Part shown: in pieces, positions 9,864 to 16,921 of the stretch | Layout of the letters: every line of letters starts with the position of its first letter | Position numbering within the stretch: the stretch's first letter is position 1 | Source of the DNA: Alphaproteobacteria bacterium | GTDB lineage: Bacteria > Pseudomonadota > Alphaproteobacteria > GCA-2731375 | Length of the DNA: 64,000 bases | Direction of reading: 5' to 3' | NCBI GenBank assembly: GCA_965232515.1 | Contig: CBDDPY010000002.1 | Location: 2,240,001 to 2,304,000 of the forward strand | Position numbers and translations under genes: made by a program | The notes under the pieces: generated by a model | What the model saw: only the letters and a program-made list of their open reading frames with translations | Databases searched by the model: none | Told to the model about the DNA's origin: nothing

Positions 9864-10454
9864 ATGCCGAAGCTGGGAATGGAGCCGATCCGGCGCAGTG
9901 CGCTGGTGGCGGCGGCGATCGAGGCGATCCACGCCGAGGGCTTCTGCGGCGTGACGGTGAGCCATATCGCCTCGCGCGCCGGCGTCTCCACCGGCCTGGC
10001 GCACCACTATTTCGGCTCCAAGGACCAGTTGCTGGCAGCGACCATGCGGCACCTGTTCAATCGTCTCGGCGAGGAGGTGGCGGCGCGGCTGCGGACCGCG
10101 CGCACGCCCGCCGAGCGGCTGACGGCGATCGTCGAGGGCAACTTCGCGCCGTCGCAGTTTCAGCCGAGCCTGATCTCGGCCTGGCTCGCTTTCTACATGC
10201 AGTCGCAGACCTCGCCGGCCGCCAACCATCTCTTGCGCATCTATCACCGGCGGCTGGCCAGCAATCTCGCCTTCGTCTTCCGGGCCTGGACGCCCGACCG
10301 CACGACGGCGCGGGACTGCGCGGAAACGGCCGCGGCGCTGATCGACGGCTTGTGGCTGCGGTTTGCCTTGAGTGAAACGCCACCCACGCCGGTGGCGGCG
10401 GCGCGCGACGTGGAGCGGCGCATCCTCGCTTTGTTCGATGGCGAACCGGCATGA
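9864..10454 (+). CDS. betI: Choline-responsive TetR-family repressor BetI
   Basis: N-terminus [11 protein letters not shown], Tet[24 protein letters not shown]. Confidence 0.93.
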
Positions 10455-12106
10455 CGCGCGAAGCGGATTTCATCATCGTCGGCTCGGGCTCGGCCGGCAG
10501 CGCGCTCGCCAGCCGTTTGAGCGAGGACGGCCGACACGACGTGCTGGTGCTGGAATATGGCGGCATCGACGCCGGCCCGCTGATCCAGATGCCGGCGGCG
10601 CTGTCGTACCCGATGAACATGGCGCGTTACGACTGGGGCTACGAGACCGAGCCGGAGCCGTATCTCGGCGGCCGCCGCCTCGCCTGCCCGCGCGGCAAGG
10701 TGGTCGGCGGCACCTCGTCGATCAACGGCATGGTCTATGTGCGCGGCCACGCCCGGGACTACGATCACTGGGCGGACCAGGGCGCGGCCGGCTGGGCCTA
10801 TGCGGATGTTCTGCCTTATTTCAAGCGCATGGAATCATCACACGGCGGCGAGGCCGGTTGGCGCGGCACCGACGGACCGCTGCACGTGACGCGTGGACGC
10901 CGCCGTAACCCGCTATACGAGGCCTTCGTGCAGGCCGGACGCGAGGCCGGTTACGAATTGACCGAGGATTACAACGGCGCGCGGCAGGAAGGCTTCGGCG
11001 CCATGGAGATGACGGTCTGGCAGGGCCGACGCTGGTCGACGGCGAACGCCTATCTGAAGCCGGCGCTGAAGCGGTCAAATCTATCGCTGATGCGCTGCTT
11101 CGCGCGCCGCGTCGTGATCGAACAGGGCCGCGCCACCGGCGTCGAGATCGAACGCGGCGGCCGCATCGAAACGGTCAGCGCCCGGCGCGAGGTCATCCTC
11201 GCCGCGTCGGCCATCAACTCGCCGAAGCTGCTGATGCTCTCCGGCATCGGGCCGGCCAACGCGTTGCGCGCGCATGGCATCGACGTGATCGCCGACCGGC
11301 CGGGCGTCGGCAGCAACCTGCAGGACCATCTCGAACTCTACGTGCAGCAGGAATGCCGCCAGCCGATCACGCTCAACGGCAAGCTGAACCTGATGTCGAA
11401 GGCGCTGATCGGCGCTGAATGGCTGTTCTTCAAGTCAGGCGACGGCGCCACCAACCATTTCGAGTCGGCGGCCTTCGTGCGCTCCAAGGCCGGCGTCGAG
11501 TATCCCGACATCCAGTATCACTTCCTGCCGGCGGCGATCCGCTACGACGGCAAGTCGGCGGCAAAGGCGCACGGCTTTCAGGCGCATGTCGGGCCGATGC
11601 GCTCGGCCTCGCGCGGCGACGTGCGGTTGCGCTCCAGCGATCCGACGGACGATCCGGCGATCCGCTTCAACTACATGTCGCAGCCGGCGGACTGGGCGGA
11701 CTTCCGCACCTGCATCCGCCTGACTCGCGAGATCTTCGCCCAGCCGGCCTTCAAGAAATTCGCCGGCGCCGAGATCGCGCCCGGCGACGCGGCGCAGTCC
11801 GACGCGGCGCTCGACGACTATATCTGCGGCGCGGTCGAGAGCGCCTATCACCCCTGCGGCACCTGCCGCATGGGGCGCGCCGACGACATGCATGCGGTGG
11901 TCGACCCCGAATGCCGGGTGATCGGCGTCGACGGTCTCCGGGTCGCCGACAGCTCGATCTTCCCGCGCATCCCGAACGGGAATCTCAATGCGCCCTCGAT
12001 CATGGTCGGCGAGAAGGCCAGCGACCACATCCTCGGCCGGACGCCGCTGCCGCCGGCGAACCAGGAACCCTGGATCCACCCGCACTGGCGCGAGCGGCAG
12101 CGGTAA
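10451..12106 (+). CDS. betA: Choline dehydrogenase (GMC oxidoreductase)
   Basis: GSGSAG FAD motif, [41 protein letters not shown] overlap with betI. Confidence 0.95.
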
Positions 12107-12183
12107 TGAATATCCCGACCGACGGAAGAAAACCAATGATCGAGATCGATGACAAGATTCTAAGCGCTTGAATATGTATGGGG

Positions 12184-12738
12184 CTAGATTTCGATCATTC
12201 TGGTTTCTTGTGCCCAAGCGCGCCAGTCGATTTCTTCTGAGTTCACCAGTTCCAATGACTCTTCGAGCGCATGGTGGTTCATAAAAAGAGTCAAATTCTG
12301 GCACTGCCAACGTGCCGAGGGTGAAATCAAACCATCGAGGCCCATGTAGTTTATGGCGGTTCCGATGACTTGCGTTTGCGCATAGTTGCGTTCGCCATAG
12401 CGTTCGGGATCTACGCCCAATTGCTCTAGGTCTGCCATCGACAGCGTAACGGTTTTGCTCGTAGTTACCGCAAGCTCGTGGACAACAAGCGGTTTGGACG
12501 GCATTGGGTTTTGCAGCGCTAGATAAGATACAACTTCTGCCAGTGCTCCGTCCCGTTCGAAGCTTGTGTATAAGACGGGAAATCCCGGCTCGCCATTAGG
12601 CCGGGGAGCCCAACGGCCGCCATTGAGAGAGGCGGCCGTTGGGTCAAAGCTCTTACCAGTGACGCGAAAAACTGACCCTCTGAAAGAAGTTTGTTCGCAT
12701 TGAGCCAGCGTGTCGGTCAGCTTTTGGTCAATTTTCAC
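12184..12738 (-). CDS. RES-domain toxin (putative NAD+ phosphorylase/ADP-ribosyltransferase)
   Basis: FR..GGRW, LYTS..ALAEV, Y..TQ.IG and GLISPSAR carry the R-E-S residues. GTG start. AT-richer than flanks. Confidence 0.88.
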   Translation of the reverse strand: MKIDQKLTDTLAQCEQTSFRGSVFRVTGKSFDPTAASLNGGRWAPRPNGEPGFPVLYTSFERDGALAEVVSYLALQNPMPSKPLVVHELAVTTSKTVTLSMADLEQLGVDPERYGERNYAQTQVIGTAINYMGLDGLISPSARWQCQNLTLFMNHHALEESLELVNSEEIDWRAWAQETRMIEI

Positions 12739-12756
12739 GAGCCGGTCCTAGACACT

Positions 12757-13095
12757 CTACATATGGACAGCATCCCGCATCTGATTGACCAGATGTCGGA
12801 CATCATCAATCCGTCCATTCTGTATCAACTCAGCAGGCGAATGGCCTTGGAGGAGCTTTTGCGGCGCGAACATCCATTGCCGAGCTTCACTCGGCTCATA
12901 GAAATCAGATAGTTGATCGACAATATACTCTAGCTCAAGGAGCGTCTTCTCTTTCTTTGGTTGTGGATATGCACGGCCTTGATTCCATCTTGAAACCGTT
13001 TCCGGCCTTGTTCCAAGAAGGTTAGCGACTTCGGTACTTCTCATCGCTCCCTTCGATTTGATGGTGTCCAGCCGCTTTGCAACGGCTCCCATCAT
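12757..13095 (-). CDS. Xre/MbcA/ParS-type antitoxin (HTH + DUF2384-like C-terminus)
   Basis: HTH STEVANLLGTRPETVSRWNQG. C-terminal ARQWMFAPQKLLQGHSPAELI. Strong RBS GGAGGGAGGG. Confidence 0.87.
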   Translation of the reverse strand: MMGAVAKRLDTIKSKGAMRSTEVANLLGTRPETVSRWNQGRAYPQPKKEKTLLELEYIVDQLSDFYEPSEARQWMFAPQKLLQGHSPAELIQNGRIDDVRHLVNQMRDAVHM

Positions 13096-13143
13096 GTCCC
13101 TCCCTCCAATTTTGTGATCATCGCAGTTCCTCCTTTCAACGCA

Positions 13144-14445
13144 TTACTTTCGTCGGTTGTCTTCTCTTGTCTGCCGGTCCAGTGGAGCCTTAGTCGGTTC
13201 CTCTATCGGATTGACTTCTGCTAAATGCGCCATCGCCTGGCGGAAACGACCCATCTTCTTTTGCTTTTCCGTTAGGTTCTTCTTTAGAGTGGCGTCCAAC
13301 GACTTAAATCCTGTCGTCGCCGCGACGTCATCAGAAACACGGCGAACTTCGTTATCGAGATAGGTCTGGATACGCACCGCTTCGGGCGCAGCGCTGATTT
13401 CCTTAACTTGCCGCGAGCGTTGATAAACGAAATGACGGGACGGGTGCTGCAGCATATCGGGTACGCCCTTTGGACAGCAGTGAGTGTCCAGGCAACCAAA
13501 CCGACCATGCAAACGCGAATTGGACTTAAGGAGCGCAGCCGCATCCGCAGGCTTCAAAAGCAAATCAAGCTTGGGAAAATACACGCGTACCGGCAGCCCA
13601 CCACCTTGTTTCGATTTGCGTGGATTTCGCCATGGAGCAGGCCTGAATCCTTCAAGCATCGTAATGCCGTGTGCGATGCCGCCAACAGCACTGAAAGCCA
13701 TTAGACCCAAACCAGGCAAACCGCCAACCTGATCTGCCACAATCGGCACGCCAAGCGCCTGGAAATCGGTGCAAGCCTCTATGTAGGCAGCCGTCTTCTC
13801 GCCCGTCGCATCTGAACCGAAATTCTCAATTCTCAACCACAACGCCTCGAAAGGTGCATCCGCCACGGCGGCAACGAGGGCTCGCCTTTGAACGCGGTCG
13901 CGCAGTATCTGAATTGGCAGTGCCAGCGAGTACAGCAGAGATAATTCCGATCCCTGCCTGTCGAGTGCTTCCTGCAGATAACCCATCATCGCGATGTCGC
14001 GGCGCAACCAAGGATCGTTCGGACTTTGCAAAATATGGGTTGGACCGAGGATTTGTGTGAAACCATAGGTTTGCGCAAACTCAGCGATTTGAGCGGCACA
14101 TTTGCGACCCTGGAACATATCGAAGTCTTCTAGTCGATTCGGACGATCCATCCCCCATGGCAGGTCACCAATTGAGCTCGAATAGCCACCAATAGTTGCA
14201 GCCTTTTGGGTTTGAGGGTCGAGAACAACATCCAGATTTTTCTTGAGAGCTTCGGCAATCAGTTCCTTATGCCGAACGGCACAGGAAGCATCAATTATGA
14301 CACCGAAAAAGTCGCTTATGCCCTCGGCCAGCAGGCCCAGCATATCCTTATGCTGATTGTGACCGACGCGGAGATACAAACCCAACCGGCGCATTTCTGG
14401 GCGCGCTCCGACCGGGCGCGGCAGGTGAACCACTTGACCAGACAT
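13144..14445 (-). CDS. 433-aa hypothetical protein, probable TIM barrel with C-terminal Cys/His cluster
   Basis: Alternating beta/alpha pattern, VVLDPQT, ILGPTH, GCLDTHCC..RHF. RBS AAGGAG. First gene of the Xre-RES operon. Confidence 0.8.
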   Translation of the reverse strand: MSGQVVHLPRPVGARPEMRRLGLYLRVGHNQHKDMLGLLAEGISDFFGVIIDASCAVRHKELIAEALKKNLDVVLDPQTQKAATIGGYSSSIGDLPWGMDRPNRLEDFDMFQGRKCAAQIAEFAQTYGFTQILGPTHILQSPNDPWLRRDIAMMGYLQEALDRQGSELSLLYSLALPIQILRDRVQRRALVAAVADAPFEALWLRIENFGSDATGEKTAAYIEACTDFQALGVPIVADQVGGLPGLGLMAFSAVGGIAHGITMLEGFRPAPWRNPRKSKQGGGLPVRVYFPKLDLLLKPADAAALLKSNSRLHGRFGCLDTHCCPKGVPDMLQHPSRHFVYQRSRQVKEISAAPEAVRIQTYLDNEVRRVSDDVAATTGFKSLDATLKKNLTEKQKKMGRFRQAMAHLAEVNPIEEPTKAPLDRQTREDNRRK

Positions 14446-14464
14446 GGAGTGTTCTCCTTTCTGG

Positions 14465-14548
14465 ATTGACTATATCATTGACAAATATATTGCGCAATAA
14501 ATTGTTTTTATAATTGACGTAATTGTTGACGAATTTGTTAATCATAGC
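14465..14548. repeat. Degenerate 12-bp tandem repeat array (about 7 units) in the AT-rich operon promoter
   Basis: ATTGACTATATC/ATTGACAAATAT/ATTGCGCAATAA/ATTGTTTTTATA/ATTGACGTAATT/GTTGACGAATTT/GTTAATCATAGC. Confidence 0.7.
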
Positions 14549-14657
14549 GTCGGGCCAATGCCTGTGTGCATAACCATGATGAAGGGTGGTCCGCTTGGAA
14601 TCACTTTATGGCTGTCGACGCGACCCTCGGCACTACGGCCGCAAATGATCTGTGCCT

Positions 14658-15752
14658 CTACTCCAAGCGTCGCCGGAACAGCCAAGCCGCGGCGCTGAGG
14701 GTGCAGAGGGCGATGAGGGCGAGCGGCCAGGTGTTGTCGACGACGTTGATGGCCGGCATGTCCTTGGTGAAGACGCCGTTGACGACGACGATGAAGTGGC
14801 GCAGCGGGTTGATCAGCGTGAACTGCTGCAGCCAGTCCGGCATGTTCTCGACCGGGCTGGCGAAGCCCGAGAGCAGGATCGCCGGCGCGGCGAAGAGGAA
14901 GCTGCCGAGGAAGGCCTGCTGCTGTGTCTGCGACAGCGAGGAAATGAACAGGCCAACGCCGATCACGGACAGGAGATACATCACCAGGCTGCCGTAGAGC
15001 AGCAGCAGCGAGCCGGTGAACGGCACGGCGAACGCGAAGACCGCGGCGATGAGAAACACCGTGCCGTGGAACAGGCCGATCAGCAGCGACGGCACGGTCT
15101 TGCCGACCAGGATCTCGGCCGGCGTCAGCGGCGAGACCAGCAGCTGGTCGAAGGTGCCGAGCTCGCGCTCGCGCGCCACCGACAGGGCCGTGACCGACAA
15201 GCCGATCAGCAGCGTGATGGTGCCGATCAGGCTCGGCACGATGAACCATTGATGCTCGAGGTTGGGATTGAACCAGTCGCGCGTCACCAGCACGCTCGGT
15301 GGGCCGGCCGCGAGGTCACGATTGAACTGGTCGACGATGCGCGCGGCATAGCCCTGCACGATCTGCGCCGCGTTCGAGCGCCGGCCGTCGAGAATGAGCT
15401 GCGCCGTCGCCGGCCGGCCGGCGGCGATGTCCGCGGAAAAGCTCTGCGGCAGATGCAGCACGACGAGCGCTTCCTGCCGGTCGATGACGGGGCGGATCTC
15501 GGCGACGCCGTCGAGGAAGCGGATCTCGCGGAACGTGGGTGCGCCGACGAAGCGTTGCACCAGCTCGTGCGACCACTTGCCGGGATCCTGGTTGAGCACG
15601 GCCATGCGCACGTTCTCCACATCGAGCGTGGCAGCGAAGCTGAAGACCACGAGCTGCAGCAGCGGCGGCACGATCAGCACCATGCGGCCGCGCGGGTCGC
15701 GCAGGATCGCCAGCAGCTCCTTGACGATCAGGGCGGTGACGCGGCCAAGCAT
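14658..15752 (-). CDS. ybhR: ABC-2 exporter permease (YbhR-like)
   Basis: KELLAILRDP, ARERELGTFDQLLVSP, LSGFASPVENMP. The ORF-track start at 17012 is over-extended. Confidence 0.85.
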   Translation of the reverse strand: MLGRVTALIVKELLAILRDPRGRMVLIVPPLLQLVVFSFAATLDVENVRMAVLNQDPGKWSHELVQRFVGAPTFREIRFLDGVAEIRPVIDRQEALVVLHLPQSFSADIAAGRPATAQLILDGRRSNAAQIVQGYAARIVDQFNRDLAAGPPSVLVTRDWFNPNLEHQWFIVPSLIGTITLLIGLSVTALSVARERELGTFDQLLVSPLTPAEILVGKTVPSLLIGLFHGTVFLIAAVFAFAVPFTGSLLLLYGSLVMYLLSVIGVGLFISSLSQTQQQAFLGSFLFAAPAILLSGFASPVENMPDWLQQFTLINPLRHFIVVVNGVFTKDMPAINVVDNTWPLALIALCTLSAAAWLFRRRLE

Positions 15753-15754
15753 GA

Positions 15755-16917
15755 TCAGTCCAGCCGCTTCTTCGTGTTGCGCACGGCGAGGCCGAACAGC
15801 ACGGCGCCGATGCCGAGCATGATCGCGATGTTGGGCAGCAGCAGCGGCCAGATGTCGCCGGTCAGGAACAGCGTCTGCAGGCTGTTGACGAAGTAGCGCG
15901 CCGGAATGACGTGGGTGATCGCCTGAATGACGGGCGGCATACTGGCGATCTCGTAGATGAAGCCCGACAGCAGCATGGCCGGCAGGAAGCCGGCGAACAG
16001 CGCGATCTGCGAGGCGACGAACTGGTTCTTGGCGACGGCGGAGATCAGATAACCGAGGCCGAGTGCCGGGCAGAGAAAGGCGGCCGACACGATGGTCAGG
16101 GCAACGACGGAGCCGCGGAACGGCACGCCGAACAGGCCGATCGCCAGCAGCGTGCAGCCGGCCATCGAGGCCATGCCGAGCGCAAAGTAAGGCGCGATCT
16201 TGCCGCCCAGCAGCTCCAGCGTGCTGACCGGCGTCGCCAGCATCGCCTCCATGGTGCCGCGCTCCCATTCCCGCGCGATGACGAGCGCCGTCAGCAGCGT
16301 GCCGATCAGCGTCATGACGATGGCGACCGAGCCCGGCACCAGGAAATTCCGGCTCTCCAGCTCCTCGTTGAACCAGTAGCGGGATTCGAGCGCGACATTG
16401 GCGGCGTCGGCGAGGCCGTGCTCGAGGCGGCGCTGCTGCTGCCAGTTGGACCAGACGCCTTGCGCGTAGTTCTGCACGAAGTTGGCCGTGTTCGGCTGGG
16501 TGCCGTCGGCGATGACCTGGATCGGCGCCACCTGGCTTGCCTGCATCAGGCGCGACGAGAAGTCCTGCGGCACCACGACAATGCCGCGGATGTCGCCGGC
16601 GATCAGGTCGGGGACGACCTCGCGACGGTCGCGGACGATGCGCGTGTCGAAGAACCGCGAGTTGGTGAAGGCGACGGCGAGGCTCTGGACCTCGGGCGAG
16701 GTGTCCTCCAGCACCAGGCCAATCCTGATCTTGTTGGCGTCGAGCGAGACGCCGAAGCCGAACAGGAACAACAGGATAAACGGCAGGACGAAGGCGATGA
16801 GGATGCTGCTGGGATCGCGAAAGACCTGGATGGTCTCCTTGCGGATCAGCGCCCGAAACCGGCGACCGCGCTGGCCGGTGGCGATCTCGATCCGCTCGTG
16901 ACCGGCGGCGCGGGCCT

Positions 16918-16921
<4 letters not shown>
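15755..16921 (-). CDS. ybhS: ABC-2 exporter permease (YbhS-like)
   Basis: KETIQVFRDPSS, AREWERGTMEAMLATP. Confidence 0.85.

Follow-up and report, generated by a model that had tools for sequence, protein, structure and literature searches.

The window analysed here, a stretch of 64,000 nucleotides of alphaproteobacterial DNA, contains three genes that together look like an undescribed three-part system, in which a protein of 433 amino acids with the predicted fold of the tRNA/DNA-guanine transglycosylase (TGT) superfamily is encoded ahead of an Xre antitoxin and a RES toxin. It is well supported that the family of this large protein occurs essentially only ahead of Xre-RES pairs, and likewise that its gene is a dedicated yet dispensable accessory of the pair. 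Tentatively, with a likelihood somewhat short of even, the best explanation is a three-gene variant of the MbcTA-like RES-Xre type II module, in which the 433-aa protein would be an accessory regulator.

According to the ORF list, the three genes lie on the minus strand in one orientation: the gene of the 433-aa protein is followed after 48 nt (13096-13143) by that of the 112-aa Xre protein, and this one after 18 nt (12739-12756) by that of the 184-aa RES protein. The features of the locus are the following:

14446..14548, minus strand: promoter/operator-like region, 5' of the 433-aa gene
13144..14445, minus strand: gene of the 433-aa protein (ORF, start ATG), predicted TGT-fold barrel of an unnamed family
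12757..13095, minus strand: gene of the predicted Xre/MbcA/ParS-type antitoxin, 112 aa (ORF, start ATG), HTH at the N-terminus and toxin-binding domain at the C-terminus
12184..12738, minus strand: gene of the predicted RES-domain toxin, 184 aa (ORF, start GTG), MbcT-like branch
12107..12183, no strand: GC-poor 3' spacer separating the stop codons of RES and of the convergent betA-like gene

An earlier note on this DNA had described an AT-rich, co-oriented trio between betA-like and ABC-2 genes with no mobility gene beside it, and ORFs, gaps and composition agree with this description. The GC content of the module is 0.528 versus 0.674 in the flanks, and sliding windows give 0.48-0.56 over positions ~12000-14600 versus 0.63-0.70 on either side; GC lies below that of the flanks in 30 of the 34 module loci compared. 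One flank carries OpuAC, a BetI-type TetR regulator and a GMC oxidoreductase (betA-like, 10451..12106), and the other two ABC-2 permeases (14658..15788 and 15755..16921) together with a double ABC ATPase; the six flanking proteins scanned include no integrase or transposase. The repeat search found no flanking direct repeats of note around the insert, and when the window DNA across the insert was searched in relatives the betA part alone was matched. An inverted repeat (12135-12147/12187-12199) spans the RES stop and could represent either a terminator or an insert boundary, and the consensus scan gave one weak terminator-like site, at 12127-12113.

Ahead of the first gene, the palindrome TTGCGCAA is present at 14497-14490 (the inverted-repeat search reports 14484-14503). 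A putative promoter of the 433-aa gene can be read in this region, with TTGCGC (14497-14492) as the -35 element, a 17-nt spacer and TATAGT (14474-14469) as the -10 element; the consensus promoter scan does not list this promoter. The motif GTCAAY occurs four times, starting at 14530, 14518, 14482 and 14470, and AAAGGAG (14460-14454) lies 8 nt ahead of the ATG. The exact palindrome is found 48-58 nt 5' of the start codon in 15 of the 22 alpha-clade loci, the background being 30 occurrences in the 293,775 nt of L001-L024. By eye, other clades have different inverted repeats at the same position, and two-gene relatives have similar repeats immediately 5' of Xre. In the model that we propose, one promoter would drive all three genes with the conserved palindrome as its -35 region, and the palindrome would be the operator of the Xre antitoxin, which would thus place the 433-aa gene under the autoregulation of the module.

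The identities that the earlier note had given to the two small proteins are borne out by Pfam, with both scores above the cut-offs. The 184-aa protein matches PF08808 (RES) over residues 24-172 (E 5.4e-18, 65.9 bits vs. a cut-off of 23.2), and the 112-aa protein matches PF09722 (Xre_MbcA_ParS_C; E 6.6e-7, 29.7 bits vs. 24.5). The best solved match to both is MbcT-MbcA (Rv1989c-Rv1990c, 6FKG), with E 3.6e-21 for the Xre profile against MbcA (6fkg_C, over residues 11-112) and E 1.3e-6 for the RES profile against MbcT (6fkg_A). From their sequences, it is well supported that the middle gene encodes an Xre/MbcA-type antitoxin of the RES toxin and the last one a RES toxin predicted to consume NAD+; the solved member of the RES branch of the module is an NAD+ phosphorylase. 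Across 34 RES sequences, R25, R42, E68 and R143 are invariant and S141 is kept in at least 90%, while R42 (GGRW), which we take to be the catalytic arginine, E68 (ALAE) and S141 (PSAR) are invariant in a set of 20. Xre, which has invariant residues across 37 sequences, is 110-123 aa long whether or not the big gene is present, and has no extra addiction segment. The NCBIfam models NF049845 and NF049844 match the pair weakly (E 3.8e-9 and 2.4e-4), and because both scores are far under the subfamily cut-offs (36.6 vs. 90 bits and 20.9 vs. 110 bits) the pair is classed, by these models, outside the ParST-type subfamily. As in MbcTA, the antitoxin gene precedes the toxin gene and the sizes are similar (112/184 aa here vs. 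chains of 115/186), but unlike in MbcTA a TGT-fold gene precedes the pair in what would be one regulatory unit. ParS-ParT and the RES-Xre system of Pseudomonas putida have the domain pair in common with the module and lack the third gene. The literature describes MbcTA, like the other RES-Xre systems studied, as a module of two genes (PMC12457610; PMC2701414; PMC6436930).

The linkage of the large gene to the pair was followed in all related loci that were evaluable, i.e., that have enough DNA downstream of the 433-aa family gene. Xre and then RES are found behind it in 100 of 101 such loci, as the conserved three-gene order envisaged in the earlier note would have it, and because the order recurs in this way the arrangement is far beyond chance. 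Species genomes show it in 25 of 25 loci with downstream DNA, plasmid records in 11 of 12 (the twelfth ends at the record origin after Xre) and the class sample of genomes in two of three matches, the third being decayed. In the most divergent subgroup, made up of metagenome loci, both genes are present in 62 of 62 loci with at least 950 nt downstream, and Xre in 10 of 10 that have room for Xre alone. The trio occurs in Alphaproteobacteria, on a Gordonia plasmid and in metagenomes, the latter with Binataceae, Blastococcus and Chloroflexota as their named relatives. The family comprises 673 cluster representatives at 50% identity (E<=1e-3) and is rare in the class and phylum genome samples searched, with matches in 3 of 400 genomes of the class sample and none to the family model among the 400 genomes of the phylum-wide sample, counts that are biased low since 4 candidates were scored per genome and a remnant in genome G300 was missed. 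No homolog is found in 50,697 phage records.

The Xre-RES pair, on the other hand, is not confined to trios: it persists without the big gene, which is therefore a dispensable accessory. A model of the Xre subfamily matches 15 loci in 14 of 400 other genomes; six of these loci lack any trace of the big gene over 1.3 kb or more of upstream DNA, three have remnants or pieces of it and one has only the C-terminal end, at the locus edge (remnants are found in L069 and L070 and the C-terminal piece at the edge of L063). The upstream ORFs of L058, L059, L064, L067, L068 and L073 were considered as divergent family members and discarded (best E 0.38, filters off). In a tree of Xre and RES, the loci lacking the big gene nest among the trio loci and the starred branches force at least four changes; the pair of L068 is 83% identical to that of a plasmid trio, and L058 nests within the alpha clade. 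The picture given in the earlier note is corrected in one point: the pair can be kept without the large protein, since close pairs exist that lack it.

The 433-aa protein has no significant Pfam, NCBIfam, PADLOC or PDB match in sequence searches (for the PDB, phmmer and profile searches), and the ESM Atlas gives unnamed clusters only. Insignificant matches to DUF7795 (E 0.052), TyeA (E 0.03) and a cytochrome (E 1.3) were discarded. Both motifs pointed out in the earlier note are present: LDPQT at residues 75-79 and a Cys-His cluster composed of C318-x4-C323-C324 and H338. These three cysteines and the histidine are invariant in 37 of 37 family sequences with identities down to 26%, and the cluster is probably a zinc site, as judged from sequence. 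D76, D150, R26, R358, G242 and G256 are kept in at least 90% of the 37 sequences, position 238 is acidic in most, and strands 7 and 8 are each followed by a glycine-rich loop (GGLPGLG and GAVGG.AHG). The family is basic (median pI 9.26, with the C-terminal 95 residues net positive in 37 of 37), basic pI values being widespread in high-GC bacteria, and the N-terminus of the protein is not signal peptide-like.

The AlphaFold model (pLDDT 90.3) predicts a (β/α)8-type barrel followed by a C-terminal helical part that carries the Cys3-His cluster. The best five folds among 48,161 chains, with 271-303 residues aligned, all belong to the TGT superfamily: ArcTGT (1iq8_A; Z 19.6, 303 residues, rmsd 3.8), TGT (3unt_A; Z 19.3, 300 residues, rmsd 3.5), QTRT2 (Z 17.3), DpdA (Z 15.4) and Cap10 (Z 15.2), whereas generic TIM barrels reach Z 14.5 at most. 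TGTs also rank first in Foldseek (E about 4e-6), the cluster falls within the TGT-aligned range of the model (up to 372) and, by DSSP, most conserved residues lie at or just past the C-terminal ends of the barrel strands. At the sequence level, Pfam gives no match to PF01702 at E<=1, the PDB profile search with the family finds no TGT, and hhalign of the family alignment against the Tgt of the same genome returns a probability of 0.4. By its model, the protein is thus a member of the TGT superfamily at the fold level, and the resemblance to TGT and DpdA that had been suspected from the sequence is upheld; so is the barrel, as a model, while the accompanying zinc site is probable. Like TGT, archaeosine TGT and QTRT1/QTRT2, the protein combines a barrel with a C-terminal subdomain containing a Cys/His cluster. 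It differs from them in its identity of 8-13%, in the form of the cluster (C-x4-CC-x13-H, where the TGT zinc motif is C-x-C-x2-C...H) and in a context of toxin-antitoxin genes rather than queuosine synthesis. The likeness to DpdA, the DNA preQ0 insertase of the Dpd modification-restriction system (7UI4), includes a TGT-like fold over 271 residues, a basic protein and a mobile, GC-poor element, but the trio has no linked dpd or deazaguanine genes and the Z-score is below those of the tRNA enzymes.

The neighbourhoods of the module are heterogeneous and consist mainly of housekeeping or plasmid-maintenance genes, with defence genes scattered among them, so the defence-island enrichment considered in the earlier note did not emerge; no defence island is evident around 24 loci and the annotated plasmid neighbourhoods. 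Among 89 flanking ORFs of the 24 loci, mostly housekeeping, no family occurs in more than 3, which rules out a recurrent fourth gene, and the 12 PADLOC families near these loci have one member each. On plasmids, the module is mostly found beside rep/par genes and integrases, like plain addiction modules; one plasmid trio adjoins a Qat system. There are no dpdB-dpdK-like or deazaguanine-synthesis genes in 11 annotated plasmid neighbourhoods, and a single QueA among the 89 flanking ORFs. In PADLOC-DB 2.0.0 (2023 library) the 433-aa protein and RES match no family, and Xre has only weak HTH-level matches to RmrA (E 2e-4). Literature searches found no paper describing the trio; supplementary tables of large defence screens might list the family as an untested candidate. 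In line with the earlier note, neither PADLOC nor the literature thus matched the trio to a described system; the 'beta-family proteins' that the note mentioned as neighbours of RES genes connect to nothing found. Three-gene operons built on a type II pair are known from tripartite toxin-antitoxin systems, e.g., TAC with its SecB-like chaperone, paaR-paaA-parE and omega-epsilon-zeta. Unlike in these systems, the third component here is large, enzyme-like, first-encoded and dispensable.

Within the accessory-regulator model, it is possible, if doubtful, that the 433-aa protein acts as a sensor or trigger by recognising nucleic acid or a nucleobase-type ligand. Such a ligand would be bound at the conserved face of the barrel, and candidate cues would be foreign or modified DNA or RNA or a purine-like metabolite. 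The cue-bound protein would then act on the Xre-RES complex, RES would be freed and NAD+ consumed, so that growth arrest or abortive infection would answer to a cue in what is otherwise a plain addiction module. That the protein is the sensor of a new abortive-infection system, releasing an NAD+-phosphorylase toxin from its antitoxin, is unlikely; in that version, a remodelled transglycosylase pocket would read 7-deazaguanine-modified or unusual phage DNA or RNA, or a purine-derived signal. The closest functional analogy is Cap10 of type IV CBASS (9NTN, Cap10-CdnD), a TGT-fold accessory in a conflict system. Its likeness to the 433-aa protein is confined to the fold level and, unlike type IV CBASS, the trio has no CD-NTase, Cap9/QueC or Cap11 and its effector would be a RES toxin held by an antitoxin. 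Cap10 is reported to bind its effector-producing partner (10.1101/2025.04.06.647259). Co-folding of RES, Xre and the 433-aa protein gave a median score of 0.36 vs. 0.00 for the best of three controls, a result marked as weak support. In calibration, 58 of 80 solved complexes earned this mark, as did 2 of 110 mismatched pairs, and scores of at most 0.60 belong to only 7 of the 80 solved complexes and to both mismatches passing the mark; partner pLDDT was at least 87 and at least 46% of the contacts were shared between runs. This lends weak support to a predicted contact between the 433-aa protein and the pair, the interaction raised in the earlier note, passes of this kind being wrong more often than not unless a strong prior backs them.

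The same co-fold result would fit a large protein that is a structural helper in the style of a TA chaperone, i.e., a scaffold without catalytic activity whose task is to stabilise or assemble Xre or Xre-RES, and QTRT2, which is among the best folds, is a non-catalytic TGT paralogue. Close Xre-RES pairs (L068 and L058), however, are intact after loss of the gene, the length of Xre stays within the same range with and without it and shows no extra addiction segment, and polar residues of the catalytic face of the barrel are conserved, making this the least probable of the explanations. Very improbable too is an incidental fold match, which would make the protein a glycoside-hydrolase-like or some other TIM barrel, unrelated to TGT, working on a sugar or cell-wall substrate. 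Many GH18, GH53 and GH5 barrels are found at Z 13-14.5, early Foldseek matches include GH20 enzymes and carboxyltransferases, and the protein has no sequence similarity to TGT; yet TGT chains hold the top five ranks, up to 5 Z units above the hydrolases, align 40-80 more residues and do so across the Cys3-His C-terminal part (model 16-372/416), and neither the N-terminus, the basic character nor the cytoplasmic context of the protein suits such a substrate.

Two further readings retain an enzymatic role. As an antidote or recovery factor, which we regard as rather improbable, a TGT-fold ribosyl- or base-transfer enzyme would act on the chemistry of the RES toxin by clearing or recycling ADP-ribose-1''-phosphate or by reversing an ADP-ribosyl mark, aiding recovery from arrest with no need for TA binding. 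Exclusive linkage to RES-Xre across phyla would fit such a tie to RES biochemistry, and dispensability would be expected if Xre alone neutralises the toxin. The conserved acidic residues and the glycine-rich loops after strands 7 and 8, which in TIM barrels indicate a small-molecule or phosphate site, suggest such a site here. TGT enzymes are described as acting by ribosyl transfer at the N-glycosidic bond (10.1101/2025.04.06.647259) and RES enzymes as cutting the nicotinamide-ribose bond (PMC12457610; PMC9503650). Against it, all matched solved relatives act on tRNA, DNA or protein-linked deazaguanine, and the basic C-terminal part suits a polymer better than a metabolite. It also counts against an antidote that we know of no TGT superfamily member acting on NAD+ or ADP-ribose. 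A polymer would be the substrate if the protein were an independent DpdA/TGT-like base-exchange enzyme modifying host DNA or RNA, e.g., for self-marking, with Xre-RES stabilising its inheritance. The fold, the probable zinc site and the basic protein would suit this role, the module is GC-poor in 30 of 34 loci as in mobile DNA, and the host genome carries the queuosine genes tgt and queA (the latter named by eye), so that deazaguanine precursors may be available. This explanation is distinctly improbable: a cargo gene would be expected alone or with varied TA families, whereas a single Xre-RES subfamily follows in constant order in 100 of the 101 evaluable loci; among the flanking ORFs and plasmid annotations, neither a DpdB-like ATPase nor QueC/D/E genes recur near it, apart from one adjacent Qat system; and its position, 3' of the operator-like palindrome and 5' of Xre, puts it within the putative regulatory unit of the module.

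RES-Xre modules have been studied as two-gene systems that deplete NAD+ in persistence, plasmid maintenance and phage defence, and how RES-type toxins are activated is a standing question. The trio adds to them a large, conserved and unnamed family that is tied almost exclusively to one RES-Xre branch in several phyla, and about a hundred loci annotated as 'hypothetical protein' become nameable by context as a new annotation family. Natural controls are at hand in close relatives of the pair that differ in whether they have the gene. If the 433-aa protein is a trigger, it would offer a testable handle on RES toxin activation; as an antidote or a modifying enzyme, it would represent new chemistry for the TGT superfamily; and if it is the sensor of an abortive-infection system, it would be the second independent recruitment of a queuosine-pathway fold to immunity, beside Cap10 of type IV CBASS.

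The candidate operon comprises three open reading frames (ORFs) on the minus strand, listed here in the order of transcription and separated by gaps of 48 and 18 nt.

13144..14445, minus strand: ORF encoding the large protein (433 aa)
12757..13095, minus strand: ORF encoding the Xre antitoxin (112 aa)
12184..12738, minus strand: ORF encoding the RES toxin (184 aa), with a GTG start

The GC content of this module is 0.528 versus 0.674 in its flanks, and in a sliding profile it is 0.48-0.56 at about 12000-14600 against 0.63-0.70 on both sides. One flank encodes an OpuAC binding protein, a BetI-type TetR regulator and a GMC oxidoreductase (betA-like, ending at 12106), and the opposite flank two ABC-2 permeases and a double ABC ATPase; none of the six flanking proteins scanned is a mobility protein. 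The earlier note, which described three co-oriented genes with these gaps on an AT-rich insert between betA and ybhR without a mobility gene, was correct in all details that could be checked, and the DPQT motif (within LDPQT) and the C-x4-CC...H cluster that it reported are present in the 433-aa protein. An inverted repeat of 13 nt (window 12135-12199; 92% complementary, arms 39 nt apart) spans the RES stop codon on the GC-poor edge beside the betA-like gene, and may either serve as a terminator or be a remnant of the insertion site.

The 184-aa protein contains a RES domain (Pfam PF08808, E 5.4e-18). Profiles of the RES and Xre relatives match MbcT (E 1.3e-6) and MbcA (E 3.6e-21), respectively, of the solved MbcT/MbcA pair (6FKG), and the NCBIfam cut-offs for ParST-type subfamilies are reached by neither protein of the window. 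Because residues R42, E68 and S141 are conserved, the toxin looks active as judged from its sequence. According to two reports, RES toxins consume NAD+ or transfer from it: NAD+ phosphorylase activity is given for MbcT and NatT, ADP-ribosyltransferase activity for ParT, and the RES protein of P. putida is a predicted NADase (PMC12457610, PMC9503650). The genome contains two more RES-domain genes (G000:C2:5144819-5145271, locus L028, E 2.6e-35; G000:C2:4480358-4480765, locus L030, E 4.1e-15). Neither locus gives a tblastn match to the RES or Xre of the window at E<=1e-3, and both may be ordinary two-gene modules. In a search of the whole genome, the large protein occurs at the locus of the window only.

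The strongest result of this analysis is the linkage of the large-protein gene to the Xre-RES pair. The trio is kept, with conserved gene order, in 100 of 101 evaluable loci overall. In species genomes the family is found at 26 loci, all from Alphaproteobacteria by record title, and Xre and then RES follow on the same strand and in the same order in all 25 that have downstream DNA. Homologues with 27-34% identity are present on 12 plasmid records, including a plasmid of Gordonia (Actinomycetota), and 11 of these carry the large-protein gene, Xre and RES in this order, the twelfth ending at the record origin past Xre. Among 400 other genomes of the class, three contain the large-protein gene, two of them within a trio; the third (G006) has it in three pieces with Xre and gives no RES match. 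For the most divergent subgroup, with named relatives from Binataceae, Blastococcus and Chloroflexota, a metagenome scan produced 80 loci: Xre and RES are present in 62/62 loci whose downstream DNA spans 950 nt or more (immediately adjacent in 61, displaced by 437 nt in one) and Xre in 10/10 with room for Xre alone, while eight are too short to judge linkage. A search of 50,697 phage records detected no homologue of the large protein. Several copies in the species genomes show damage: interruptions or frameshifts affect the RES match in L002, L018, L020 and L023, and an in-frame stop affects it in L024. The large-protein gene is broken up in L015, L022 and L023, and only a fragment of it is left in L025. 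Since some damaged loci come from metagenome-assembled genomes, some of these frameshifts may be assembly errors. About 2.4 kb lies between Xre and an N-terminally shortened RES gene in L010 (L010:7639-10060), and about 250 nt breaks the RES match in L002 (L002:7897-8147); both may be insertions that inactivated the toxin and left the large-protein gene and Xre intact.

This linkage is one-way, as the pair also occurs without the large-protein gene. The Xre-subfamily model matches 14 of the 400 other genomes, at 15 loci. The large-protein gene is intact at two of these; only its C-terminal end is present, at the locus edge, in L063; remnants or pieces lie directly upstream of Xre in L069, L070 and G006 (pieces); no trace is found within at least 1.3 kb upstream in L058, L059, L064, L067, L068 and L073; and the upstream DNA of L065, L066 and L072 is too short to judge. 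RES is missing beside Xre in L059 and L067. The orphan Xre of L059 (G222:C4:110418-113753), 75% identical to that of the window and with neither RES nor the large-protein gene beside it, is still preceded by the motif AAATGTCAAT known upstream of trios, and looks like an antitoxin left over after both partners were lost. On a tree of Xre plus RES (103 rows, quick method), loci lacking the large-protein gene nest among trio loci: L058 falls inside the alpha clade (support 95), L068 beside the plasmid trios (support 98; 83% identical to plasmid locus L041), L064 beside L063, and L073 beside L069. The starred branches of this tree force at least four changes in the large-protein gene, with labels set without remnants; counting these leaves the pattern unchanged or strengthens it. 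The Xre-RES pairs of L063 (G325) and L064 (G009), which share a genus code, are near-identical (tree distance about 0.03); directly upstream of Xre, the former has the C-terminal end of the large-protein gene and the latter an unrelated gene and an inverted repeat. Here the large-protein gene was gained or lost very recently, and the two loci form a natural control pair. Because remnants are found, at least some of the changes are losses. The large-protein gene is thus an accessory that is dedicated to the pair but dispensable, and retention of the pair evidently needs no more than the antitoxin.

The large protein has no match in Pfam, NCBIfam, PADLOC or PDB sequences. Its family is large and conserved in length: scoring of 8000 candidates gave 287 homologues at E<=1e-3, annotated as hypothetical wherever they have a name, and clusters at 50% identity contribute 673 representatives at E<=1e-3, 221 of them at E<=1e-30. 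An AlphaFold model built from 35 sequences (mean pLDDT 90.3, pTM 0.89) predicts a (beta/alpha)8-type barrel at residues ~20-300 followed by long helices. When this model was compared with 48,161 representative PDB chains, the best five matches were all members of the tRNA/DNA-guanine transglycosylase (TGT) superfamily: archaeosine TGT (1iq8_A, Z 19.6, 303 residues aligned), bacterial TGT (3unt_A, Z 19.3, 300 residues), the non-catalytic paralogue QTRT2 (6fv5_A, Z 17.3, 295 residues), the DNA preQ0 insertase DpdA (7ui4_A, Z 15.4, 271 residues) and Cap10 in complex with CdnD (9ntn_B, Z 15.2, 272 residues). Generic TIM barrels rank lower (Z 14.5 or less), and Foldseek also places TGTs on top (E ~4e-6, 11-13% identity). 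The predicted structure thus bears out the proposal of a TIM barrel recalling the TGT/DpdA fold. Sequence similarity to TGT was not detected by hhalign against the genome's own Tgt (probability 0.4). In an alignment reaching 26% identity, L75, W97, P135, G260, C318, C323, C324 and H338 are invariant and R26, D76, D150, W203, G242, G256 and R358 are at least 90% conserved. By the secondary structure of the model, most of these residues would lie where the barrel strands end on their C-terminal side or just past this point, on what is usually the active face of such barrels, and the Cys3-His cluster falls in the aligned range that would correspond to the TGT zinc subdomain. Members of the family are basic proteins (median pI 9.26), with a net positive charge over the final 95 residues in 37/37 sequences. 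The N-terminal tail (residues 1-20, window 14386-14445) is modelled with low confidence (pLDDT 58-68) and carries a conserved motif, NV.HLPRP....R, in which L8 and R10 are invariant and P9 and P11 are kept by at least 90% of the alpha clade; a partner or a protease could recognise it as a short linear motif. The canonical Tgt of the genome (L027:1456-2580, G000:C2:1172431-1173483, PF01702 E 1.4e-155) reads LNCPASRDYSRAYLHH at what is presumably the place of the bacterial zinc motif C-x-C-x2-C, seemingly with only one of its three cysteines.

Upstream of the large-protein gene, the palindrome TTGCGCAA (14497-14490) would be the -35 element of a promoter, with TATAGT 17 nt on and AAAGGAG ahead of the ATG; a generic promoter scan of the window does not list this site. 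In 15 of 22 alpha-clade loci, exact TTGCGCAA is found 48-58 nt ahead of the start codon; the 293,775 nt of those loci overall contain it just 30 times. By eye, other clades have different inverted repeats at the same place, and two-gene relatives similar ones directly ahead of Xre. These repeats fit an antitoxin operator, with the large-protein gene lying between operator and antitoxin gene.

The trio behaves as a small self-contained mobile module, with a GC content below that of the flanks in 30 of 34 loci. Plasmid trios adjoin repA/repB/repC or parB in five of 12 records and tyrosine integrases in four; single ones adjoin Tn7-like genes, a VapBC pair, a restriction endonuclease or a Qat system. 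On the Celeribacter ethanolicus plasmid NZ_CP022197.1 (L047:5178-7684), RES overlaps, on the same strand, the start of qatA, the first gene of a Qat anti-phage system. A QueC-family protein is part of Qat systems, and proteins of this type are the partners of the TGT-fold Cap10 in type IV CBASS. This adjacency may be coincidental, since a near-identical trio on a Pukyongiella plasmid (L048) has a restriction endonuclease in place of Qat. Enrichment in defence islands, which the earlier note proposed to look for, is not apparent: among the 89 nearest ORFs at 24 chromosomal loci, mostly housekeeping, no family recurs in more than three, with single matches to an MmeI-type restriction-modification protein, AbiLi, ArdA and a transposase. 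PADLOC-DB 2.0.0 has no model for the module, and in full-text literature searches, PMC2701414, PMC12457610, PMC9503650 and the Cap10 preprint (10.1101/2025.04.06.647259) included, a partner of RES-Xre with a TGT fold or TIM barrel was nowhere found described, although supplementary tables of defence screens may list the family as a candidate.

Co-folding of RES, Xre and the large protein hints at contact with the pair: the median score of 0.36 (runs 0.36, 0.18 and 0.37) is classed as 'weak support', with the best of three controls at 0.00, partner pLDDT of at least 87 and at least 46% of contacts common to the runs. In calibration, 58 of 80 solved complexes passed this mark, as did 2 of 110 mismatched pairs; scores of 0.60 or less belonged to only seven of those 80 and to both passing mismatches. 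A reader of nucleic acid or nucleobases is favoured by the TGT fold, the basic charge and the precedent of Cap10; the large protein would then be a regulator or trigger that senses a cue and acts on nucleic acid or a nucleobase-type ligand, a role that leads the four considered and that we regard as possible but somewhat doubtful. That it is instead an enzyme linked to the chemistry of RES, either an antidote or a recovery factor, seems unlikely. Slightly less plausible still is an independent base-modifying enzyme stabilised by the Xre-RES pair, as cargo of this kind is countered by the exclusive linkage to Xre-RES, and a structural, chaperone-like helper of the antitoxin is improbable given the dispensability of the gene. 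The cue-sensing reading belongs to the explanation that we consider best; taken as a whole, well-supported parts included, this is held tentatively, at rather less than an even chance. The module is most likely a tripartite variant of MbcTA-like RES-Xre systems with a TGT-fold accessory.
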